Positions 3,591-49,600 of a DNA stretch of 64,000 nt are shown piece by piece. Source of the DNA: Escherichia coli (lineage in GTDB: Bacteria; Pseudomonadota; Gammaproteobacteria; Enterobacterales; Enterobacteriaceae); assembly GCF_016026235.1 (NCBI RefSeq), contig NZ_CP065613.1. One strand, written 5' to 3'. Under the pieces are notes generated by a model. It saw only the letters and a list, made by a program, of their open reading frames with translations, was not told the DNA's origin and ran no database searches. The stretch's first letter is position 1; every line of letters begins with the position of its first letter. A program made the translations under genes and the position numbers.

Positions 3591-3754
3591 AATGACATCC
3601 TCAAGTGATAAGTTAATTAACTCACCAGCAGAGGTGCTAATCTCATGGGTGGTGAGACGCACAGGGTTAGCACTACCGGTCACTCGAGAACCCGGCCAGC
3701 CTTGCGGCTGCCCCGCACGCCTCACCATAATTTGAATGTGGCTGTGCATTACGC

Positions 3755-3781
3755 ATAAAAAAACCGCTTCAGCGCGGTTAT
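3755..3781 (-). terminator. Rho-independent terminator (minus strand)
   Basis: Minus-strand hairpin AACCGC-GCTGAA-GCGGTT followed by TTTTTTT. Confidence 0.4.
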
Positions 3782-3905
3782 GCGCTCGAGTAACTTTCGG
3801 GGTGCTAATCCCGGCACCCGTTTTATGAGGTGCAGGTGCACTATAATTCCACCCGTTCTGGTTTTCAATAGCTACATTCAACATTTTCTCTTTCCTTTCA
3901 TCACC

Positions 3906-10000: not shown

Positions 10001-10119
10001 TATGGCACCTGTGTTGTTCTGAGGTGAGCATATCACCTCTGTTCAGGTGGCCAAATTCAGTAAACCACTTCACTATCAGGCTTCAATTACCGCTGGTATT
10101 CGCATCAAAGGAGAGGAGC

Positions 10120-12298: not shown

Positions 12299-12479
12299 AA
12301 GGAAACAAAACAGAAACAGCAATTGCCGTTACCTGTTGTTACCATGGCAAGTAAACGTATCTCAGGCGAGCGCATTGCGCCGTTCTGACGCAGATAAACT
12401 AGCCTGGATAGATGGTGCTGGCAATAAAAAATAGCGTTTTCTTATCGGTGTCGGTAAGATTGCTGCGGGTGCTTGAGGC

Positions 12480-12635
12480 TGTCTGCCTCGGGCATGTCAC
12501 TGTAAGGCAGACAGAGAAAAGCCCCAGTTAACATTACGCGTCCTGCAAGACGCTTAACATTAATCTGAGGCCCAATCTATGTCTCACAAATGTAGGTTAG
12601 CCTCTTACGTGCCGAAAGGCAAGGAGAAGCAGGCT
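12480..12635. promoter_or_regulatory. hok mRNA leader with stem-loops; expected location of sok antisense RNA
   Basis: Inverted repeat GTCTGCCT...AGGCAGAC (12481-12512); 9-bp hairpin GGCGGGAGA-GTAA-TCTCCCGCC downstream at 12800-12822. Confidence 0.35.
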
Positions 12636-12791
12636 ATGAAGCAGCAAAAGGCGATGTTAATCGCCCTGATCGTCATCTGTTTAACCGTCATTGTGACGGC
12701 ACTGGTAACGAGGAAAGACCTCTGCGAGGTACGAATCCGAACCGGCCAGACGGAGGTCGCTGTCTTCGTAGACTACGAATCTAGAGAGTAA
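12579..12791 (+). CDS. mok: mok-like in-frame extended reading frame overlapping hok
   Basis: 70-aa ORF ending at the hok stop, as MokC extends HokC in E. coli. Confidence 0.4.
   Translation: MSHKCRLASYVPKGKEKQAMKQQKAMLIALIVICLTVIVTALVTRKDLCEVRIRTGQTEVAVFVDYESRE
12636..12791 (+). CDS. hok: Hok/Gef-family type I toxin
   Basis: MKQQKAMLIALIVICLTVIVTALVTRKDLCEVRIRTGQTEVAVF is near-identical in pattern to HokD/RelF; AAGGAG Shine-Dalgarno. Confidence 0.8.
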   Translation: MKQQKAMLIALIVICLTVIVTALVTRKDLCEVRIRTGQTEVAVFVDYESRE

Positions 12792-14794: not shown

Positions 14795-14883
14795 CTCAAT
14801 CTGTTATCCGGGGCTATATTCCTCACGCGCCAGCAAAATCTGGCGTCGGGATTGGCGTCCCGGATGTTTACGGAGCGATATGA

Positions 14884-14904
14884 GACGCGCCCGCGTCTTT
14901 TTTC
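14884..14904 (+). terminator. Hairpin plus T-run downstream of Q (possible tR'-like terminator)
   Basis: GACGCG-CCC-GCGTC followed by TTTTTT. Confidence 0.4.
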
Positions 14905-15066
14905 ATATCGTTTGCACAGTCTCATTCGCGATTTATGGCGGGCTGTGTGGGGGAGCCGAAAGGCTCGCCGGTTTCCGTACCCGGTTACGCCAACCCTGCA
15001 CAGTTCGCCACCAGTTCGATTGGCGTCGTCGGTGGCGATAATTTCCAAATGTACGGAGTTATCGTT

Positions 15067-15832: not shown

Positions 15833-15909
15833 GGCCCTTTAGCTCAGTTGGTCAGAGCGAGCGACTCATAATCGCCAGGTCGCTGGTTCAAGTCCAGCAA
15901 GGGCCACCA
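15833..15909 (+). tRNA. tRNA with CAU anticodon (Met or Ile2, ileZ-like)
   Basis: Manual cloverleaf: acceptor GGCCCTT/AAGGGCC, anticodon loop CTCATAA, 3' CCA. Confidence 0.8.
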
Positions 15910-15910
15910 A

Positions 15911-15987
15911 CCACCACTAGCTCATCCGGATAGAGCATCAACCTTCTAAGTTGACGGTGCGAGGTTCGAGTCCTCGGTGGTGGGCCA
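15911..15987 (+). tRNA. tRNA-Arg (UCU)
   Basis: Acceptor CCACCAC/GTGGTGG, anticodon loop CTTCTAA, T-loop TTCGAGT, 3' CCA. Confidence 0.75.
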
Positions 15988-15989
15988 GC

Positions 15990-16065
<76 letters not shown>

Positions 16066-16068
16066 TAT

Positions 16069-16143
<75 letters not shown>

Positions 16144-22049: not shown

Positions 22050-23553
22050 TGGCAATTCTTGATGATGTGATTGGTGTTTTTTCACCTGGCTGGAAAGCTG
22101 CGAGATTGCGCTCAAGGGCATTAATTCGTGCCTATGAGGCAGTGAAGCCTACTCGTACACATAAAGCCCGGCGGGAAAATCGTTCTGCCGACCAGCTCAG
22201 TAAGTACGGTGCAGTTTCCCTGCGGGAGCAGGCTCGTTTTCTGGACATCAATCATGATCTGGTAATCGGTGTTTTCGACAAACTTGAGGAACGGGTGATT
22301 GGTGCAAAAGGGATCGTTGTCGAACCCCAGCCATTACTGAAGAACGGTGATATAGCCACAGAGCTGGCAATGATTATCCGTCGCTTGTGGGTGGAATGGT
22401 CTGTCAGTCCGGATGTGACCGGGCAGTATACGCGCCCCATGCTCGAGCGTCTGCTGCTGCGTACCTGGTTACGTGATGGTGAAGTGTTTGCCCAGCTGGT
22501 TCGTGGTGCCGGCGGCGGGCTGGTGCGGACTGCTGGCGTGCCTTTCTGGATCGAGGCAATGGAGCCGGATTTTGTGCCCATGCTCAGTGATGAATCTGTG
22601 GGGTTGAATCAGGGTGTTTTTCTGGATGACTGGGGCAGACCGAAAAAATACCTGGTTTATAAAAATCATCCGACTACCGGGCGGCTGAGTGATACCAAAG
22701 AGATCGTTGCCGAAAATATGGTGCATCTGAAATTTACCCGTCGTCTGCATCAGACGCGTGGTACATCCATGTTGTCAGGTGTGCTGATGCGGATCAGTGC
22801 GCTTAAGGAATATGAAGATGCTGAGCTGACAGCGGCGCGTGTTGCTGCGGCTCTGGGGCTGTATATCCGTAAAGGAGATGGGCAGGATTATGAAGACGCC
22901 ACGATAAATAAAGATAATGACCGGGAACTGCATATCACCCCTGGCATTATTTATGACGATTTGCGCAAGGGGAAGATATTGGCATGGTCAAATCTGATCG
23001 GCCCAATCCTAACCTTGAAACTTTTCGTAACGGGCAGCTGCGTGCGGTGGCCGCAGGCAGTCGTATGAGTTTTTCCAGTGCGGCGCGCAATTACAACGGT
23101 ACCTACAGCGCTCAGCGACAGGAGCTGGTCGAGTCCACTGACGGGTATCTGATCCTGCAGGACTGCTTTATTGGTGCTGTAACCCGTCCCGTGTACCGGA
23201 CGTGGCTGAACATGGTGGTAGCAGCAGGTCTGCTGAAAATCCCGTCGGATGTGGATATGAAAACGTTGTGTAACGCAACATATTCCGGTCCGGTCATGCC
23301 GTGGATTGATCCGGTTAAGGAGGCTGAGGCCTGGAAAATCCAGATTCGCGGTGGAGCGGCGACAGAATCAGACTGGGTGCGAGCAGGTGGGCGTAATCCG
23401 GATGATGTCAAACGTCGGCGCAAGGCTGAAATTGATGAAAACCGCAAGCTGGGTCTGATATTTGATACCGATCCGGCCAGTGATAAAGGAGGCAGCAGTG
23501 TCGCAACGAAACGACAGGAGCCGCAGCACACCGACGGCCAGTCCGAAGAATAA
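22049..23553 (+). pseudogene. Portal protein, frameshifted at G-run 22969-22972
   Basis: Two overlapping ORFs (22049..23068, 22984..23553); one extra G makes a single reading frame of about 500 aa; position between W and protease. Confidence 0.6.
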
Positions 23554-23566
23554 TTCCTGGTTCAGG

Positions 23567-25557
23567 ATGCAGGCAGGTCACCAGAGTGACGCGGATATTT
23601 ATATTTATGACGAGATTGGTTTCTGGGGTGTTACGGCGAAGCAGTTTATCAGCGATCTGAATGCACTGGGCGATATCACCCACATTAATCTCCATATCAA
23701 TTCACCGGGTGGCGATGTCTTTGAAGGCATCGCCATTTTTAATGCACTGAAAACACATGGTGCGTCCATTACCGTTTATGTCGACGGTGTGGCGGCATCA
23801 ATGGCGTCGGTCATTGCGATGGTGGGAAACCCGGTCATTATGCCGGAAAACACCTTCATGATGATTCATAAACCATTTGGCTTTACGGGCGGTGATGCGG
23901 AGGACATGCGCACCTATGCCGACCTGCTCGATAAAGTTGAGGCGGTTCTGTTACCCGCTTATGCACAGAAAACCGGGAAAACCACCGATGAAGTTGCTGC
24001 CATGCTGGCGGATGAGACCTGGATGTCCGGTGCCGAATGTCTGGCACATGGATTTGCTGATCAGGTGACGCCAGCCGTTAAGGCAATGGCATGTATTCAG
24101 TCAAAACGTACAGAGGAATTTAAAAAGATGCCGGAATCCATTCGAAACATGATTACTCCGCCACGCAACAGTGCAACGCGTGAACCTGAAAACAAAAATA
24201 CTGCATCTCAGACACAGGAGCAGACTACGGCTCAGGTTGCCACAACCGCGACCACCACAAATGCACCTTCCGCAGATGAAAGCAGTATCCGTGCGCAGGT
24301 ACTGGCAGAGCAAAAAGCACGTGTGAGTGGTATTAATGAACTGTTTGGTATGTTTGGCGGGCGTTATCAGACATTGCAGGCCAGTTGTCTTTCCGATCCG
24401 GAGTGCTCGCTTGAGCAGGCCCGTGAGAAATTACTTAACGAAATGGGTAAGGAATTTTCACCATCAAATAAAAATACCCCGGCCCATATTTATGCCGGAA
24501 ACGGTAATTTTGTGGGGGACGGGATCCGCCAGGCGCTGATGGCGCGTGCCGGGTTTGAAAAAACTGAACGTGATAATGTCTACAACGGGATGACCCTGCG
24601 TGAATATGCCCGTATGTCACTGACTGAACGGGGTATTGGGGTTTCCGGTTATAACCCGATGCAGATGGTCGGGGCAGCGTTCACACACAGTACGTCTGAC
24701 TTCGGTAATATTCTGCTGGATGTTGCGAACAAAGCCATTCTGCAGGGCTGGGAAGATGCCCCTGAAACCTATGAACAGTGGACGCGGAAAGGTCAGCTGT
24801 CTGATTTTAAAATTGCCCATCGTGTGGGTATGGGGGCTTCAGTGCTCTGCGTCAGGTGCGTGAAGGAGCGGAATATAAATACGTTACTACCGGAGATAAA
24901 CAGGCCACGATTGCACTGGCGACCTATGGTGAACTGTTCAGTATCACCCGTCAGGCCATTATCAACGATGATCTGAATATGCTGACCGATGTCCCGATGA
25001 AACTGGGCCGTGCGGCAAAATCCACTATTGCCGATCTGGTTTATGCCATTCTGACGTCTAACCCGAAAATCTCCACAGATAATGTAAGTCTGTTCGATAA
25101 AGCGAAACATGCAAACGTACTGGAGAGCGCTGCAATGGACGTGGCATCGCTGGATAAAGCCCGCCAGTTGATGCGTGTTCAGAAAGAGGGTGAGCGTCAT
25201 CTGAATATTCGTCCTGCGTTCGTACTGGTACCGACGGCGATGGAGTCTGTTGCTAACCAGGTCATTCGCTCCTCAAGTGTCAAGGGGGCTGACATTAACG
25301 CCGGTATTATTAACCCGGTGAAAGATTTTGCGACCGTTATTGCAGAGCCTCGTCTTGATGATAACAGCCAGACCACCTTCTACCTGGCTGCGTCCAAAGG
25401 CTCCGATACGATTGAAGTGGCTTATCTCAACGGTGTGGATACGCCATATATTGATCAGATGGAGGGCTTCAGTGTGGATGGCGTGACAACGAAAGTGCGT
25501 ATTGACGCTGGTGTCGCGCCAGTTGATCACCGCGGTCTGGTGAAATGTACGGCGTAA
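23567..25557 (+). pseudogene. Prohead protease (ClpP/S49-like) - scaffold - major capsid fusion, frameshifted at G-run 24832-24836
   Basis: N-terminal ClpP-like GDVFEGIAIFNALKTHGASITVYVDGVAASMASVIA; capsid-like C-terminal part continues in ORF 24856..25557; one extra G restores continuity. Confidence 0.6.
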
Positions 25558-27239: not shown

Positions 27240-27980
27240 ATGACCACACCAAATCCACTGGCAAAAACGAAAGGTGCGGGAACGACGTTCTGGATGTACA
27301 CCGGCAAGGGCGATGCGTTTGCGAACCCTTTGTCGGACACTGACTGGCTGCGTCTTGCGATGGTGAAGGATCTGCAACCTGGCGAAATGACCGCTGATGC
27401 AGAAGATGACACTTATCTCGATGATGAAGATGCAGACTGGAAAACGACAACCCAGGGGCAGAAATCCGTCGGTGATACTTTGGCGACGCTGGCCTGGCGT
27501 CCGGGTGACAGCGGGCAGAAAAAACTGGTTCAGTTGTTCGATTCCGGTGAAGTCTGCGCGTTTCGTATCAAATACCCCAACGGTACGGTTGATGTTTTCC
27601 GTGGCTGGCTGAGTTCACTGGGTAAAACCATTACCTCAAAAGAGGTGATGACCCGTACTGTAAAAATCAGCGGTGTGGGGCGTCCGTATCTGGCAGAGGA
27701 GGGCGCTGAAACCGTGGGTGTTACCGGACTGACGGTGGCACCGGCATCTGTCAGTGTCAAAGCGGGAGCAACCACCACACTGACCTTTACAGTAAAACCT
27801 GACGGGGCCAGTGACAAAGCGATCAGTGTGCATTCGTCAGATCCTCAGACTGCTTCGGTGACCCTGAGCGGGCTTGTGGCCACGGTGAAAGGCGTGAAGC
27901 AGGGCAGTGTCAGCATCGTGGGCATGACCTCTGACGGAGAGTTTGTGGCAGTGGCTGCGGTGACCGTCAGCGCACCATAA
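27240..27980 (+). CDS. Major tail protein V with C-terminal Ig-like domain
   Basis: 246 aa as lambda gpV; AAGGAGGTG Shine-Dalgarno; C-terminal Big_2-like repeat. Confidence 0.8.
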   Translation: MTTPNPLAKTKGAGTTFWMYTGKGDAFANPLSDTDWLRLAMVKDLQPGEMTADAEDDTYLDDEDADWKTTTQGQKSVGDTLATLAWRPGDSGQKKLVQLFDSGEVCAFRIKYPNGTVDVFRGWLSSLGKTITSKEVMTRTVKISGVGRPYLAEEGAETVGVTGLTVAPASVSVKAGATTTLTFTVKPDGASDKAISVHSSDPQTASVTLSGLVATVKGVKQGSVSIVGMTSDGEFVAVAAVTVSAP

Positions 27981-28035
27981 CAGGACGATACTCATCATTG
28001 CCCCGGTTATCCGGGGCTTTTTGCATCCGGAGAAC

Positions 28036-28425
28036 ATGATGTTTCTGAAACAGGATACGTTTAATTATGAAAAACAGTCCGTGGTGCTCAGTGAGCTGTC
28101 CGGGCTGCAGAGAATTGAATATCTGACGTTTGTTCAGCAGCGAACGGCAAAGTTTGATGCACAGGAGGGAGAACTGCCGGAGGCTGAACGACAGATTGCT
28201 TTTCTGCGTATGGGAATGGATATCAATGCCTGGCTGGTTTCCCGCTCACTGTGGAATGCTGAGCAGTCTCAGGATGTTGAGACGCTTTGCGCATCCATTA
28301 TGACAACATGGTCGTATGATGCGCTGGGCGCGGGGGCGGAGAGGGTTCTGTCGCTGAGCGGTATGGGGACCATTGAGAATGCCGGGGATGATGATCATGA
28401 GGCGCTGACGCCGGAAAAGTCCTGA
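28036..28425 (+). CDS. Tail assembly chaperone G
   Basis: MFLKQ...LSELSGLQRIEYL resembles lambda gpG. Confidence 0.7.
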   Translation: MMFLKQDTFNYEKQSVVLSELSGLQRIEYLTFVQQRTAKFDAQEGELPEAERQIAFLRMGMDINAWLVSRSLWNAEQSQDVETLCASIMTTWSYDALGAGAERVLSLSGMGTIENAGDDDHEALTPEKS

Positions 28426-28763
28426 CGCGGGAAATGCAGTTTGTCATGCGGCTTGCCCGGGAGTTCCGGCGGGCAGACTGGCGGCGGATGCTGTCGGAAA
28501 TGTCGGCCACTGAGCTTGGTGAGTGGGGCGATTATTTCCGGATGCAGAGCTTCAGTGATGTGTGGATGGATGCGCAGTTTGCCTCGCTGAAGGCATTGAT
28601 CGTGAGAATGGTGTCCGGCAGCAGCGATGCTGCGGTGGCTGATTTCAGCCTTTTACCGGAAGAGAACGGGATACCGGAGCGAACGGACGAAGAACTGATG
28701 CATCTTGGGGAAGGTATTTCCGGAGGTGTGCGTTATGGACCAGATAGCCAACCTGGTCATTGA
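28410..28763 (+). CDS. T-frame of tail assembly chaperone GT (expressed as G-T fusion by -1 programmed frameshift)
   Basis: -1 frame opens at 28410 and overlaps the end of G; heptamer GGAAAAG at 28413-28419 sits where lambda has GGGAAAG. Confidence 0.55.
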   Translation, partial: AGKVLTREMQFVMRLAREFRRADWRRMLSEMSATELGEWGDYFRMQSFSDVWMDAQFASLKALIVRMVSGSSDAAVADFSLLPEENGIPERTDEELMHLGEGISGGVRYGPDSQPGH

Positions 28764-31700
28764 TTTGGGGATTGATGCGGCAGAGTTTAAAAATGAAATT
28801 CCCCGTATCAAAAACCTTCTGAATGGTGCAGCCAGCGATGCAGAACGGTCTTCTGCCCGTATGCAGCGTTTTATGGAGCGTCAGACTCAGGCCGCCCGGC
28901 AGACAACGCAGGCGGCTTCTTCGGCTGCAACAGCCGCATCCGTCCATGCGCAGACGGTGGAGAAGAACGCACAGGCTCATGAACGCATGGCCCGCGAGGT
29001 GGAGAAAACCCGCCAGCGCATGGAGGCGCTGAGCCAGAAAATGCGCGAGGAACAGGCGCAGGCCAGGGCACTGGCGGAGGCGCAGGATAAAGCGGCTGCC
29101 GCCTTTTATCGCCAGATTGACAGTGTGAAACAGGCCGGTGCGGGGCTTCAGGAATTACAGCGTATTCAGCAGCAGATCCGACAGGCCAGAAACAGTGGCG
29201 GGGTTGGTCAGCAGGATTATCTGGCGCTGATTTCGGAGATCACGGCGAAAACCCGTGCCCTGACGCAGGCAGAGGAACAGGCCACCCGGCAGAAAGCGGC
29301 GTTTATCCGCCAGCTTAAAGAGCAGGCAACCCGCCAGAATCTGTCGTCTTCTGAGTTGCTTCGCGCCAGGGCGGCTCAGCTGGGGGTAAGCAGTGCTGCA
29401 GAAGTGTATATCCGCAAAATGGAGCGGGCAGGAAAAGCCACACATTCGCTGGGGCTGAAAAGTGCGGCAGCCCGGCGGGAGCTGGGGGTGTTAATCAGTC
29501 AGATGGCGCGCGGCAATTTTGGTGCGCTGAGGGGATCCGGGATAACGCTGGCTAACCGTGCCGGATGGACAGGCGCACTGATGTCGCCGAAAGGCATGAT
29601 GACTGGCGGCGTTATTGGCGGACTTGTCGCGGCGGTCCTGGGTCTGGGTAAAGCCTGGCATGACGGCCGGAAGGAGGGCGAGGAATTTAACCGTCAGCTG
29701 GCGCTGACGGGACATTATGCCGGTGTCACTGTCGGGCAGTTGTGGAAACTCAGCCGGGCCATATCCGGGAATGGTATCACGCAACATGCGGCAGCCGGTG
29801 CGCTGGCACAGGTGGTGGGCAGTGGGGCATTTCATGGAAACGATATTGGTATGGTGGCGAAAGCTGCCGCACAGATGGAGCGATCGGTTGGCCAGTCGGT
29901 CAGCGATACCATAAATCAGTTTAAGCGGCTGAAGGATGATCCTGTAAATGCCGCGAAGGCGCTGGACAATGCGCTGCATTTTTTGACTGCCACTCAGCTT
30001 GAGCAGATACGCGTCCTTGGGGAGCAGGGGCGGTCCAGTGATGCGGCCCGGATCGCCATGTCTGCGCTGGCAGAGGAAACCGGTAAACGCACATCTGATA
30101 TTGATAATAATCTCAATGCGCTGGGTAGTACGCTGCAAACCTTGTCTGACTGGTGGAAGCAGTTCTGGGATGCGGCCATGAATATTGGTCGTGAAGACTC
30201 GCTGGATGCGCAGATTGATGCGTTACAGGAAAAAATTCAGCGCGCGAAAAAATATCCGTGGACAAACGCCTCCACACAGGTGGAGTACGATCAGCAGCGT
30301 CTTAACGATCTTCAGGAGAAAAAACGCCGGAAGGATTTGCAGGATGCAAAAGCGCAGGCAGAACGGAATTACCAGGAGCAACAGAAACGCCGGAATGCTG
30401 AAAATGCCGCGCTGAACCGGATGAATGAAACGGAAGCTGCACGACATCAGCGGGAAATTGCGCGTATTAATGCCATGCAGTACGCCGACCAGGCTGTCAG
30501 GGATGCGGCGATACAGCGTGAAAATGAACGTTACGAAAAAGCCATTAAGAAAAATACACGGGCAACCCGTAATGATGAGGCCACCCGGTTATTGCTGCAG
30601 TACAGTCAGCAGCAGGCACAGGTGGAAGGGCAGATTGCTGCTGCCAGACAGTCAGCAGGCATTGCCACTGAAAGGATGACTGAAGCGCATAAACAGCTTC
30701 TGGCCCTGCAGCAGCGCATCAGCGACCTGGGCGGGAAAAAGCTGACGGCAGATGAAAAGAGTGTGCTGGCCCGTAAGAATGAGCTGATTCAGGCGCTGAC
30801 GCTGCTGGATGTGAAACAGCAGGAGCTGCAGAAACAGACAGCGCTTAACGACCTGAGAAAAAAAACGGTTCAGCTGACCAGCCAGCTGGCAGACAAAGAA
30901 CGTGCACTGCGTGAGCAGCACAATCTGGATATTGCCACTGCAGGTATGGGGATAAGCAGCGGCAGCGCTACCAGGCACAGTTGCGCATCCGGCAGGAATA
31001 CCGGCAACAGTTGCAACAGCTTGAGAATGACAGTCGCCAGAAAGGCACTTACGGGACGGAGGACTACCGGAGGGCTGAGGAGGTGCTGAAGGGGAGCCTG
31101 AAGCGACAACTGAATGAAAACAAACGCTACTGGCAGGAACTGGAAGTGGCGCAGGGCGACTGGAAAAACGGTGCCATGCGGGCGTTTCAGAATTTTACGG
31201 CGGATGCGGATAATGCGGCGGGAACGGCAGAACAGATGTTTACAGTGGCATTCAGCAGTGCCGGTAATGCACTGGCGACATTCTGTACCACCGGTAAGCT
31301 GAATTTTAAATCCTTTACCTCTTCCCTGTTGTCAGATATGGCCAGAATTATGGCACAGATGGCCATGATGCAGGCGGTAAAGGGCGTCGGTTCTTTATTC
31401 GGCTTCACGACTAATGCTGATGGCGGTGTTTACCAGTCTGCTGATTTGAGTCGCTACAGTGGCACGGTGGTTAACCGTCCGACGTTTTTTGCTTTTGCAA
31501 AAGGCGCGGGTGTGATGGGGGAAGCGGGACCTGAAGCCATTCTGCCACTGCGTCGCGGTGCTGATGGTAAGCTGGGGGTTGTGGCGGATACTGGTGGTTC
31601 AGGCATGGTGATGTTTGCCCCGCAGTACAACATTGAGATCAATAACGATGGCACGAACGGGCAGATAGGTCCGGCTGCCCTGAAGGTGGTTTATGACCTC

Positions 31701-31775
31701 GGGAAAAAAGCGGCCGCGGACTTTATGCAACAGCAGGCCCGTGATGGTGGCCGGTTAAGTGGAGCATACCGGTAA
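28735..31775 (+). pseudogene. Tail tape measure protein H, frameshifted at G-run 30948-30951
   Basis: Long Ala/Gln-rich coiled-coil ORF 28705..31089 continues in ORF 30981..31775; one extra G gives a continuous protein of about 1010 aa. Confidence 0.7.
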
Positions 31776-44530: not shown

Positions 44531-45046
<516 letters not shown>

Positions 45047-45075
45047 TTAGATCAAAGGAGGAAGAATAAGCAGAA

Positions 45076-45102
45076 AAAGCCCGCCATAACAGCGGGCAGG
45101 AG
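45076..45102 (-). terminator. Rho-independent terminator of ompN
   Basis: Minus-strand GCCCGC-TGTTATG-GCGGGC followed by TTTTT. Confidence 0.5.
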
Positions 45103-45105
45103 GAT

Positions 45106-46239
45106 TTAGAACTGATAAACCAGACCTAAAGCGACAATATCATCGGTAGAGATGCCGTTGGCAGCGTAGAAACTGTCATCTTCATCCAACAGGTTGATTT
45201 TATAGTCAACATAAGTGGACATGTTTTTATTGAAATAGTAAGTCGCGCCAACATCGGCGTATTTAACCAGATCTTTATCATCAACACCTGCCGGGTTGTC
45301 TGCACCACCGGCAGCGTGCAGGTCACGGCCTTTAGACATCAGGAAAGAGACTGCCGGACGCAGACCAAAATCAAACTGGTACTGTGCAGTGACTTCAAAG
45401 TTCTGGGTTTTGTTTGCAACAGCATAATCGCTGTCGCCAAACGGGGTCATATTACGCGTTTCTGAATACATGGTTGCCAAGTAAATATTGTTAGCATCGT
45501 ATTTTAGCCCAGCAGTCCACGCGTCTGCTTTATCACCACCCGCCGCAGTATGGTTAACCTGGTCATTGGTGCGGTCAGAAGAGGTGTATGCCGCACCAGC
45601 GCTAAAGCCCATGCCTAAATCATATGTTGTGGAAAGACCCCAGCCGTCACCGTTTTCATGGCGAACATCACGTCCGTTGTTGGTGCCTTCCTGACCATTA
45701 CTGGCACCTTCGTTGTTACCTTGATACTGCACCGCGAAGTTCAGACCATTTACCAGACCGAAGAAATCAGTATTACGATAAGTCGCGACGCCATTGGCAC
45801 GACCAGTCATAAAGTTGTCTGCATTGGTATAAGAGTCACCGCCAAATTCAGGCAGCATATCGGTCCAGCCTTCGATGTCGTACATTACGCCATAATTACG
45901 TCCGTAATCGAAAGAACCGTAATCTGAAAATTTCAGTCCGGCAAATGCCAGACGGGTCCATGACTGGTTTTTTGAAGATTCAGTGTTGTTTGCCTGAATA
46001 TTGTATTCCCATTGACCGTAGCCAGTAAGTTGATCGTTAATTTGGGTTTCGCCTTTAAAACCCAGACGCGCATAGCTCTGGTCGCCATCTTTCGCTGAAT
46101 TATCAGAAAAATAATGCAGGCCATCAACTTTGCCATACAGATCTAATTTGTTGCCGTCTTTATTATAAACTTCGGCTGCATGTGCAGCACCTGCGCCGAG
46201 CAGGGCAGGAATTAAAAGTGCCAGTACTTTGCTTTTCAT
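45106..46239 (-). CDS. ompN: Outer membrane porin OmpN
   Basis: 377-aa OmpC/F-family porin with signal peptide, C-terminal LVYQF. Confidence 0.85.
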
Positions 46240-46548
46240 TGAATAAATCCTTTAGTTATTTTATTTGCCTTTTATCCCCATTTCGGGGAGTGAAAACATC
46301 CTAAAGGAGAAGTTCAGTTAGCCGATAAATATCATTTGTTACGCCTTAAGTAAAACCTTAATCAAAAAATTCCTCTGAAATGATAATAAGTCTGGTGAAT
46401 GTATCGAAGATAATACATACAAAATAAAAATTATACTTTTAATTTTCTATACGTTATTCTGCGCGGGTTATATGCCTTTATTGTCACAGATTTTATTTTC
46501 TGTTGGGCCATTGCATTGCCACTGATTTTCCAACATATAAAAAGACAA

Positions 46549-46580
46549 GCCCGAACAGTCGTCTGGGCTTTTTTTTAGAA
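46549..46580. terminator. Bidirectional hairpin terminator between ydbK and ompN
   Basis: AAGCCC...GGGCTT hairpin flanked by A-run and T-run. Confidence 0.45.
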
Positions 46581-46604
46581 TTGGATAATCCTTATCCAGA
46601 GCAT

Positions 46605-49600
46605 TTAATCGGTGTTGCTTTTTTCCGCTTTTCCGGCCATTTGTGCCAGGAAGTCATAGCGTTTTTGCAAATCAGCTGCAGCATCTTTCCATAACTGTTC
46701 TGCCACTTCTGGCTGCTGAGAATTCAGACGACGGAAACGTTGCTCGTGAAGTAACGTTTCTTCCAGTGCTTCTGACGGCGGGCGTGAATCCAGCGCCAGC
46801 GGCAGTTTGCCTTCATCGGCACGACGCGGATCGAAGCGATATAGCGGCCAGAAGCCGGTAGCTGTGAGTTGGCGCATCTGGTCATGGCTGAGTGCCAGAT
46901 CGTAACCATGCTCTTCACACGGGCTATAAGCAATGATCAGCGATGGTCCCGGATACGCTTCCGCTTCCTGAATCGCTTTCACCGTCTGGTTCAGTTGCGC
47001 GCCGAGAGAAATCTGCGCCACATAAACATGACCGTACATCATCATACTGACGCCAAGATCTTTACGCGCTTTACGTTTGCCGTGCTCGCCAAATTTAGTT
47101 ACTGCACCCAGCGGTGTCGCTTTCGACGCCTGACCACCGGTGTTGGAATAGCATTGCGTATCCAGCACCAGAATGTTGACGTTTTCCGTCAAACTCAATA
47201 CATGATCCAGACCGCCAAAGCCGATATCGTAAGCCCAGCCGTCGCCACCAATCAGCCAGATTGATTTTTCTACCAGTGCATCTGCGTCACGCAGCAGTTC
47301 ATGTGCTTCGGCAACATCGTTGAGTTGCTGGCGTAAAGCTGCAACCTGTTCACGACGAACCTCTGGCGTGGCGTCTGATTTCAACGCAGTCAGTAATTCC
47401 GCCGGGATTTTATCGGCAAATTGATCCAGCAGACGCAGCACGCGGACACGGTGTTGATCGACCGTCAGGCGGAAACCAAGGCCAAATTCGGCATTATCTT
47501 CAAATAGAGAGTTCGCCCATGCCGGCCCACGACCGTTGGCATCGGTGGTATACGGTGTAGAGGGCAGGTTACCGCCATAAATTGAAGAACAGCCGGTGGC
47601 GTTAGCGATCAACATCCGGTCGCCATAGAGCTGAGTCAGCAATTTAATATACGGCGTCTCGCCACAACCGGAGCAAGCACCGGAATATTCAAACAGCGGT
47701 GTAATCAGCTGCGATGTACGAATATCAATACGTTCCAGTTTGCTACGGTCGATTTCTGGCAGGTTGAGGAAGAAATCGTAATTGATTTTCTCTTCTTCGA
47801 CATGTTCCAGGCGCGACATCATATTGATGGCTTTAATCTCTGGATTCTGACGGTCTTTCGCCGGGCAAACTTCGACGCACAGGTTACAACCGGTGCAATC
47901 TTCCGGAGCCACCTGCAAGACATATTTCTGCCCGCGCATATCACGCGATTTCACATCCAGCGAATGCAGGCTGGCAGGGGCGTTTTCCATCGCTTCAGGC
48001 GGTACCACTTTTGCGCGAATAGCTGAGTGTGGGCAAGCGGCGACGCAGTGGTTACATTGGGTACAGAGTTCCTCTTTCCAGATGGGGATCTCTTCGGCGA
48101 TATTGCGTTTTTCCCAGCGAGTGGTGCCCATCGGCCAGGTGCCGTCTGGCGGCAGCGCCGAAACGGGGAGGGCATCACCAAGCCCGGCGAGCATCGCAGC
48201 GGTTACGGTTTTCACGAAATCAGGGGCGGCATCGGAAACCACTGGCGGTCGATTGGCGCTGTGCGGATTTACCGGTTGCAACGGAACTTCTTCTACGGAT
48301 TCACGCGCCAGCGCCAGAGCCTGCCAGTTGCGTTCCACCAGATCCTGACCTTTGCTGCTGTAACTTTTGGCAATCGCACCCTGCAATTCTGCGAGGGCGC
48401 TATCGCCAGGCAGAATTTGTGTCAGATGGAAAAAAGCCATCTGCATGACGGTATTAATACGGGCCGCCAGGCCACATTCGCGGGCGATTTTCGCCGCGTT
48501 AATCACATAGAAGCGCGCTTTTTTCTGATTTAGCACGGCCTGAACTTCCTGCGGCAAGCGCGACCACACTTCATCTGCGCTGTACGGCGTGTTGAGCAGG
48601 AAAATGCCGCCAGGTTTTAAACGCTCAGCCATCTGATATTTATCGATAAACTGCAACTGGTGGCAGCCAACAAAATCAGCCTGGGAAATGAGATAAGCGG
48701 AACGAATCGGCTGTTCGCTCACGCGAAGGTGAGAAACCGTCAGGCCGCCCGCCTTTTTGGAGTCGTAAACAAAATAGCCCTGTGCGTACCACGGCGTGGA
48801 ATTACCGATAATCTTGATATTGTTTTTGGTCGCGGAAACGCTGCCATCACTACCAAGGCCATAAAACAAGGCTTCCAGTTTCGCCGAGTTTGGCAGGGTG
48901 TTTTCCGGCAACGGCAGTGACAGATTGGTCACATCATCGTAAATACCAACCGTAAAGCGCGCTTTCGGTTTAGCCGCGTTGAGCTCGGCAAATACCGCCA
49001 GTACACAGTCCGGGCCAAATTCTTTGGATGAAAGACCATAGCGCCCACCAATGATACGGGGCAGAGTTTCGCGCTCGCCATTATTAAAGGCTTCTGCCAG
49101 TGCGGTCATTACATCCAGATAGAGCGGTTCTGCCTGGGCACTGGGTTCTTTGGTTCTGTCCAGTACCGCCACGCTGCGTACGGATCCCGGCAGAGCTTGC
49201 AGCAAGTGTTTGGCGGAGAAGGGACGGTACAGGCGAACTTTCAGCACGCCAACTTTTTCGCCACGGGTTAGCAATTCATCAACCACTTCTTCACAGGTGC
49301 CAATGGCAGAGCCCATCAGGATAATCACCCGTTCCGCTTGCGGATGCCCGTAATATTCAAACGGCTGATACTGACGACCTGTCGCGGCAGAGAAATCATT
49401 CATCGCCTGTTCAACATGGTCATAGACCGCGTTGTACCATGGGTTGGTGGCTTCGCGAGACTGGAAATAAGTGTCAGGATTCGCGGACGTACCGCGGATC
49501 ACCGGATGTTCCGGGTTGAGTGCCCGGGCGCGATGAGCATCAATTTCGGCCTGCGGCATGAGATCAAGAATCGTGTCATCGGCCAGCGGGACAATTTTGT

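Follow-up and report, generated by a model that had tools for sequence, protein, structure and literature searches.

The question raised by this locus is whether two overlapping reading frames in a 64,000-nucleotide stretch of Escherichia coli DNA (here called the window) encode a tail assembly chaperone in the manner of phage lambda, with a short product G and a longer product GT made by a -1 shift of the ribosome, and whether the heptamer GGAAAAG near the end of the first frame is the place of that shift. An earlier note, made from the letters of the window, had proposed such a site. The gene pair, the overlap of its frames, the distribution of the heptamer in related phages and the sequence context of the site are considered here in turn.

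Identification of the G-T module

The GT fusion was modelled by reading gene G through the lysine codon of the heptamer and following the -1 frame onward. Profile searches with this protein revealed matches well above the model cutoffs in both of its parts. The G part was recognized by TIGR01674 (phage_lambda_G; 180.3 bits, cutoff 74.45, 1.6e-53) and PF06894 (135.4 bits, cutoff 27, 1.2e-39), and the T part by TIGR01715 (phage_lam_T; fusion residues 133-239, 134.1 bits, cutoff 77.35, 2.3e-39) and PF06223 (54.1 bits, cutoff 25.9, 2.1e-14). TIGR01674 and TIGR01715 are NCBIfam equivalog models, for the phage tail assembly chaperone G and the phage tail assembly protein T, respectively.

The gene pair is located between a homologue of the major tail gene V (lambda V-like), which ends at 27980, and a homologue of the tape measure gene H, which begins at 28735. 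The same V-G-T-H order is annotated in phages mEp460, cdtI, Tritos and Ayreon and in E. coli prophages in RefSeq. Upstream of G a terminator-like hairpin has been identified, which belongs to the setting of the G-T-H transcription unit; the records of mEp460, Ayreon and N15 annotate a rho-independent terminator at the corresponding place. The DNA of the G-T segment is 96-97% identical to 17 phage records. Judged by homology and gene order, positions 28036-28763 hold the G-T tail assembly chaperone module, and the E. coli prophage carrying it is lambda-like and of the cdtI/mEp460 type. Homology, synteny and conservation thus all support the proposal of the earlier note that a G/GT -1 frameshift site of the conserved tail chaperone lies here.

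Organization of the G/T overlap

The features of the module and its surroundings are collected in Table 1. Two starting codons may be considered for gene G: the ATG on which the length in the table is based, and a second ATG at 28039, which is used in RefSeq relatives and is better suited to the GGAG at 28029-28032. At its 3' end the gene reads ...CTG ACG CCG GAA AAG TCC TGA, as seen directly in the sequence. Relative to G, T is encoded in the -1 frame, which runs to a TGA at 28761-28763. The last stop upstream in that frame is the TGA at 28398-28400, so that the frame opens at 28401, from where it reads GADAGKVLTREMQFVMRLAREF... According to the earlier note the -1 frame opened at 28410 and overlapped the end of G; the overlap and the position of the G stop are correct, while the true opening lies 9 nt earlier.

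Table 1. Features of the G-T module and neighbouring elements in the window
Feature	Position	Strand	Description
Terminator-like hairpin GCCCCGG-TTAT-CCGGGGC with T run	28000..28022	+	7 GC pairs; between V homologue and G
Gene G (gpG homologue, tail assembly chaperone)	28036..28425	+	129 aa from ATG 28036; profile matches, RefSeq annotation
SD-like GAGG, candidate upstream stimulator	28399..28402	+	10 nt 5' of heptamer; read from sequence
G/T overlap, both 0 and -1 frames open	28401..28425	+	25 nt, set by stops 28398-28400 and 28423-28425
Putative slippery heptamer G_GAA_AAG	28413..28419	+	0 frame: P-site GAA (Glu), A-site AAG (Lys); after -1 shift: GGA, AAA
T segment after -1 shift (GTC CTG ACG ... 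TGA)	28419..28763	+	Modelled GT fusion of 242 aa, junction ...ALTPEK-VLTREMQF...
Gene G stop TGA	28423-28425	+	One codon (TCC) past heptamer
Tape measure gene H homologue	28735..31775	+	Start overlaps T end by 29 nt; split by 1-nt deletion near 30947

Since the two frames are open together solely within this short region, the frameshift must fall there. Enumeration across the overlap revealed G_GAA_AAG as the sole in-phase site at which the A-site tRNA is able to re-pair in the -1 frame, and the earlier view of GGAAAAG as the only slippery candidate in the overlap is borne out in this sense. The bare string GGAAAAG is not significant in itself, as it occurs 18 times across the window against 9.6 expected. 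The meaning of the heptamer rests on its phase, its place in the 25-nt overlap and its conservation, and not on its mere presence.

Distribution and conservation of the heptamer

The isolated phages mEp460, Tritos, cdtI and Ayreon have the same heptamer with the same flanks. G_GAA_AAG also occupies the homologous codon pair in N15, phi80, LLS, mEp213, mEp237 and Gifsy-2, and further phages have other forms there: G_GGA_AAG in lambda and Stx2a_EH1535, and A_AAA_AAG in Stx2_95. A 33-nt query centred on the heptamer was matched by megablast in no fewer than 1,813 of the 5,426 complete E. coli genomes; because megablast requires an exact word of 28 nt, the heptamer is identical in every one of these matches. 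Two phage records in GenBank name the site explicitly. In N15, for which the evidence is the GenBank feature itself, positions 10027..10033 are marked as a misc_feature "slippery sequence for -1 translational frameshift", and the letters there were confirmed to be GGAAAAG; in LLS, a misc_feature "minus-one programmed translational frameshift site GGAAAAG" is accompanied by a joined CDS. The site, the gene pair and the exact heptamer are thereby already known, being annotated in N15 and LLS.

A survey of 80 IMG/VR loci together with the named phages yielded 67 distinct GT proteins, which form 22 lineages at 80% identity. G_GAA_AAG is carried by 17 of the 22 lineages, G_GCA_AAA followed directly by TAG by two, and G_GAA_AAA-TAG, C_GCA_AAG and G_GGA_AAG (the last in lambda) by one each, in a sample that is biased toward relatives of the window and in which lambda-type sites are therefore under-counted. 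By this sequence comparison GGAAAAG is the mainstream, majority form of the sampled family, and the GGGAAAG of lambda is in the minority in the same biased sample. The earlier note had presented GGAAAAG as a variant heptamer, one base different from that of lambda; the one-base difference is real at the homologous position, but for a form found in 17 of the 22 lineages, and already marked in N15 and LLS as their slip site, the label of a variant is not supported.

Across 23 representatives of the diverged lineages the heptamer stands out as an island of nucleotide conservation, with 1.2-2.0 bits per position against mostly 0-1.3 in the upstream flank. The A_AAR portion is kept in all 23 and is the sole invariant part of the site. 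In locus L046 the overlap is just 19 nt long, and in loci of the L070 type the stop codon directly follows the heptamer; taken together, these loci bracket the shift site to the position of the heptamer.

Proposed mechanism of frameshifting and alternative explanations

A -1 frameshift at G_GAA_AAG that yields the GT fusion is considered very probable, and within this reading a tandem slippage of two tRNAs is somewhat favoured. Most ribosomes would translate G and terminate at the TGA at 28423, and a small fraction would slip back by one nucleotide on the heptamer. In this event tRNA-Lys (anticodon UUU) would move from AAG to the fully cognate AAA. Peptidyl-tRNA-Glu (anticodon UUC) would leave GAA for GGA, where positions 1 and 3 would still form Watson-Crick pairs and position 2 a G·U pair. 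After the slip the T frame would be read as GTC CTG ACG... up to 28763, giving the 242-aa fusion. By analogy with lambda, the binding partner of G would be the tape measure protein, and recruitment of the major tail protein would fall to the T part of GT, the frameshift thereby setting the G:GT ratio.

Compared with the canonical X_XXY_YYZ pattern, the A-site half of the heptamer conforms, AAG being exchanged for the cognate AAA of the single E. coli tRNA-Lys(UUU), whereas the P-site half does not, as the first three bases, GGA, are not identical. The statement of the earlier note that P-site re-pairing would be imperfect is therefore right, the imperfection being the second-position G·U pair of GAA moved to GGA, and the same argument was made by Peng et al. 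2019 (PMC6924986). As a P-site departure from XXX, G_GA is accepted and occurs in well-studied viral sites (PMC5009743; PMC3542737). To judge from the motif name, GG+AAAA appears to belong to the 'twofour' class of PRFect, which was derived from annotated phage frameshifts (PMC10885494). In E. coli, which has a single tRNA-Lys (UUU), A_AAG is the shiftiest A-site motif (PMC4066793; also PMC5009743).

Several published values bear on the efficiency to be expected. In a purified E. coli system, Peng et al. 2019 set AUG_GAA_AAG against G_GGA_AAG as the 'less slippery' control, and with wild-type EF-G this control gave mainly the 0-frame product (PMC6924986). Frameshifting of 6-7% was obtained by Antonov 2013 for two HK97-like tail chaperone genes, the heptamer of which differs from GGAAAAG (PMC3711429). 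In lambda the GT:G ratio is about 1:30 (PMC5009743). Full-text literature searches found no frameshifting measurement for any phage with G_GAA_AAG. The efficiency at the present site may be well below the few percent of lambda, and a lower efficiency would be acceptable, given that the required GT:G ratio is small.

The bases of the heptamer themselves speak to the part played by the P site. Base 1 forms the third letter of the codon before it, which is CCG, CTG, GCG, GTG or ATG and thus specifies five different amino acids. This base is G in every lineage with GAA or GGA in the P site and A in the case of a P-site AAA; one lineage with GCA, where P-site re-pairing is impossible anyway, has C. 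Such covariation of base 1 with the P-site codon argues for P-site re-pairing. The lineages with G_GCA_AAA_TAG and C_GCA_AAG have a P-site codon without re-pairing ability, which indicates that tandem re-pairing is not obligatory in the G-T family. For these GCA variants a slippage of tRNA-Lys by itself is plausible. The same could apply to the window: tRNA-Lys would slip on A_AAG while in the A site, or else once in the P site and ahead of decoding of the following codon, with no meaningful re-pairing of tRNA-Glu and with the same protein (...PEK-VLTR...) as the product. In keeping with this, no part of the site but A_AAR is shared by all lineage representatives, tRNA-Lys(UUU) slips very readily on AAG (PMC4066793), and a stop codon that follows at 0-1 codons, as in 16 of 23 lineages, could slow decoding. 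Against it stand the constancy of G at base 1 across five preceding codons whenever the P site holds GAA or GGA, and the behaviour of the tetramer A_AAG, which by itself stays near background in E. coli unless a strong stimulator is present (PMC4066793); none is predicted here. A lysine-only slip is accordingly rated as a minority possibility, of about one chance in a few, beside the two-tRNA slip.

Production of T from its own start at ATG 28434, with no frameshift at all, is much less probable still. PGAP and several phage records do annotate a separate T CDS from this codon, and a purine-rich GGGAA lies just upstream of it. This candidate was rejected, however, as the ATG is not conserved, its Met being aligned with Leu in lambda, N15, phi80 and Gifsy-2, and as the spacing from GGGAA is poor, only 2 nt. 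In addition, homology in the T frame (V/A-L/F-x-x-E-L/M-x-F) begins directly after the heptamer and hence upstream of the ATG, and the match to TIGR01715 begins at fusion residue 133, just ahead of that Met. Levin, Hendrix and Casjens are said to have reported in 1993 that the T sequences of lambda are made only as GT. The least credible explanation, with a probability close to nil, is that the heptamer is a misread lambda-type GGGAAAG or that the change of frame is due to RNA polymerase slippage. A sequencing error had been mentioned in the earlier note, and homopolymers elsewhere in the window do differ in length; the alignment check rejected it, since the same heptamer is present in the four isolated phages, which were sequenced independently, and in the large set of E. 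coli genomes found by megablast. Transcriptional slippage was rejected because the A run comprises four residues, against roughly 7-9 needed (PMC3711429).

Sequence context of the slippery site

Around the heptamer three kinds of context element were considered: Shine-Dalgarno-like (SD-like) cores, defined as GGAG, GAGG or AGGA; the distance to the G stop codon; and RNA structure. Of 23 lineage representatives, 12 have an SD-like core 6-17 nt 5' of the heptamer; among control positions taken from the same genes the share is 11%. The comparison is made in a region that encodes an acidic tail and in lineages that are phylogenetically related. The G stop codon lies 0-1 codons past the heptamer in 16 of the 23 representatives, and all 12 with an SD-like core belong to these 16. 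Conversely, no core was found in the seven lineages of the lambda/N15/phi80 type, in which the stop is located 5 codons past the heptamer. Within the 16 close-stop lineages the cores are most frequent at 6-17 nt, and the rest of the preceding 70 nt holds few of them: 14 lineage-bin hits fall at 6-17 nt compared with 0-2 per 6-nt bin at other distances, a contrast to be read with the relatedness of the lineages and the overlap of the core with an invariant Glu codon in mind. Pseudoknot-free folding gave no sign of a downstream stimulatory structure, the folds of 28420-28500 (z = -0.39) and 28385-28470 (z = +0.24) being no better than those of shuffled sequences.

A tentative suggestion drawn from this pattern is that the cdtI/mEp460/Gifsy-2 branch, to which the window belongs, may use a three-part signal, formed from the weak heptamer G_GAA_AAG, a GAGG about 10 nt 5' of it and a stop 0-1 codons 3' of it; we regard this as possible, though rather doubtful. 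If it were true, frameshifting would rise to what G_GGA_AAG by itself achieves in lambda, and the N15/phi80 branch would have either a much lower GT:G ratio or another, unseen stimulator.

State of the prophage

Compared with its closest complete-genome relative, a different prophage in E. coli FDAARGOS_943 (97.5% identity), the window lacks one G in each of three G runs. These losses break the portal gene (near 22968), the ClpP-protease/major capsid fusion gene (near 24831) and the tape measure gene (near 30947). The host flank of the prophage is 100% identical to FDAARGOS_943, and that genome has no prophage at this locus.

The site could on this account be a relic in a decaying prophage, in which G/GT frameshifting no longer has a role in tail assembly. 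Single-base deletions that interrupt portal, capsid fusion and tape measure genes are what such a reading would build on. All three changes, however, are losses of one G from a homopolymer, which is typical of sequencing or assembly error, and other genomes with intact neighbouring genes carry copies of the G-T segment at 100% identity. Decay is considered less probable than not, yet not so improbable as to be disregarded; should the G-run deletions be real, the G/GT site would be idle in this prophage. The question of decay concerns present use and does not touch the identity of the element.

Significance

As a discovery the site carries little weight: the heptamer was already annotated in N15 and LLS, and the sequence is found in a third of complete E. 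coli genomes. Its importance is of a modest, practical kind. RefSeq/PGAP and many phage records list T as a free-standing CDS, and the GT fusion is consequently absent in a systematic way from the annotation of a module that is very common. Programs for frameshift detection that admit only X_XXY_YYZ overlook the G-T heptamer that is commonest among the sampled enterobacterial lambda-like phages. Furthermore, the heptamer that served as a "less slippery" control in vitro is the form carried by most of the sampled phages. Given that this control is the natural majority form, the family offers a convenient natural series, G_GGA_AAG, G_GAA_AAG, A_AAA_AAG and G_GCA_AAA-stop, which would be suited to asking how P-site re-pairing and sequence context each contribute to a low, fixed frameshift ratio.

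Comparison with known frameshift systems

The best known relative is the G/GT pair of lambda, the -1 programmed frameshift of which is attributed in PMC5009743 to the work of Levin, Hendrix & Casjens 1993 and Xu, Hendrix & Duda 2004, 2013, 2014. The proteins are homologous, with 34% identity over the fusion, and the V-G-T-H order and the direction of the shift are the same. The lambda heptamer G_GGA_AAG is located at the homologous codon pair and shares the A-site A_AAG. The differences relate to the P site, where lambda has GGA (Gly) and the window GAA (Glu), with the second-position G·U as a consequence in the window, and to the surroundings: the G stop lies 5 codons past the heptamer in lambda and one codon past it in the window, and lambda has no SD-like GAGG.

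In N15 (genes 14/15), LLS and phi80 the same G_GAA_AAG is found at the homologous position, with explicit slip-site features in GenBank for N15 and LLS. Their proteins are about 36-37% identical to the GT of the window, the stop is placed 5 codons past the heptamer, and no SD-like core is present. Phages cdtI, mEp460, Tritos and Ayreon, with 96-97% DNA identity over G-T and the same heptamer and flanks, show essentially no difference from the window. Salmonella Gifsy-2 has 53% protein identity, the same ...ACG CCG GAA AAG TCC TGA end and a GAGG at the same distance. In the records of all five of these phages T is given as a separate CDS with no slippage join; that of Gifsy-2 carries a descriptive note.

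Outside the bacteriophages, RNA viruses with G_GAN_NNN (insect-specific flaviviruses, umbraviruses and dianthoviruses) have the same G_GA deviation in the P-site part (PMC5009743). Pea enation mosaic virus, with G_GAU_UUU_UGG_UAG, carries its stop 3 nt past the heptamer, as in the window, and there the stop is required for frameshifting (PMC5009743). The sites of the RNA viruses differ in that they are read by eukaryotic ribosomes, have a U-rich A-site codon and need downstream RNA structures, and they have no evolutionary relationship to the site described here.

In E. coli dnaX the SD-like stimulator acts at a spacing of 10 nt, the same as that of the candidate GAGG in the window. The dnaX heptamer, A_AAA_AAG, has the same A-site A_AAG read by tRNA-Lys(UUU), and its upstream SD-like element (PMC6924986) has a candidate counterpart in the window. 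In contrast, dnaX possesses a downstream hairpin and a different P-site codon, whereas no significant downstream hairpin is predicted in the window. The efficiency of dnaX frameshifting is 50% (PMC3711429), and that of the G/GT site in the window is expected to be far lower.

Slip-site variants and their upstream context in the G-T family

The tail assembly chaperone genes G and T have been compared across diverged lineages with regard to the region preceding the slippery heptamer (G_GAA_AAG in the window). SD-like cores peak 6-17 nt 5' of the heptamer, most often 10 nt away from it, and the window carries one upstream of its own heptamer; cores at the equivalent position are also present in the related loci L010, L043, L046, L055, L060 and L074, among others. 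Such a core is found in 12 of the 16 lineages in which the G stop lies 0-1 codons past the heptamer, and it is confined to that group: none of the seven lambda/N15/phi80-type lineages possesses one 6-17 nt upstream.

Variant slip sites have been identified in the family members L050, L052, L057 and L060 (heptamer at about 1902-1908), in L055, and in L067. In the family, these forms include: (i) G_GCA_AAA with TAG immediately 3', in some members; (ii) C_GCA_AAG; (iii) G_GAA_AAA, likewise followed directly by TAG. Re-pairing of the P-site tRNA is impossible in the first two, and the GCA sequences suggest slippage by the Lys tRNA only, aided by the adjoining stop codon where this lies directly 3'.

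Counted over both strands of the whole window, the heptamer GGAAAAG has 18 copies against 9.6 expected, a number attained in just one of 100 shuffles; composition or codon effects probably account for the excess.

Annotation of T and integrity of the structural genes

Roughly one in three complete E. coli genomes carries the G-T module. In the window (28434-28763) as in RefSeq/GenBank relatives, T is presented by PGAP and most phage records as an independent CDS with no ribosomal-slippage join, and the GT fusion is therefore absent from the annotation of the module. The annotated T start is an ATG that is not conserved.

Compared to the closest relative (L007), one G is missing in each of three G homopolymers, which splits the portal gene, the ClpP-protease/major capsid fusion gene and the tape measure gene. 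The deletions may be sequencing errors in the homopolymers; otherwise the prophage is decaying.

Features identified in the window
Feature	Position	Strand	Remarks
C4 antisense RNA + isrK pair, copy 1	3645-3833	-
sok antitoxin RNA	12467-12641		one copy
C4 antisense RNA + isrK pair, copy 2	14814-15015	+
tRNA cluster	15833-16143		four genes, in prophage: Met(CAT), Arg(TCT), Thr(TGT), Gly(TCC)
Portal gene	~22968		split by single-G deletion (vs L007)
ClpP-protease/major capsid fusion gene	~24831		split into ORFs 23462-24976 and 24856-25557 (vs L007)
Terminator-like hairpin, strong	28000-28022		7 GC pairs and T run; between major tail gene and G
SD-like core	28399-28402		upstream of heptamer
Tape measure gene	~30947		split into ORFs 28735-31089 and 30981-31775 (vs L007)
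Host flank	45000-49000		ompN, micC, nifJ/ydbK
MicC	46464-46584		in host flank

RNA genes and host flank

The two C4/isrK pairs lie in opposite orientations and, together with sok, suggest that the window contains two regions for prophage immunity or late control, or that it has been rearranged. The tRNA-Gly(TCC) decodes GGA, the codon that comes to lie in the P site in the -1 frame; this does not imply a functional connection. Across the host flank the sequence matches E. coli FDAARGOS_943 with 100% identity, but FDAARGOS_943 carries no prophage at the corresponding locus. The window derives from a related strain outside the complete-genome collection.

The hairpin between V and G

The hairpin preceding G may lower G-T-H expression relative to the major tail gene V. 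It is recorded as a terminator in the annotations of phages mEp460, Ayreon and N15.
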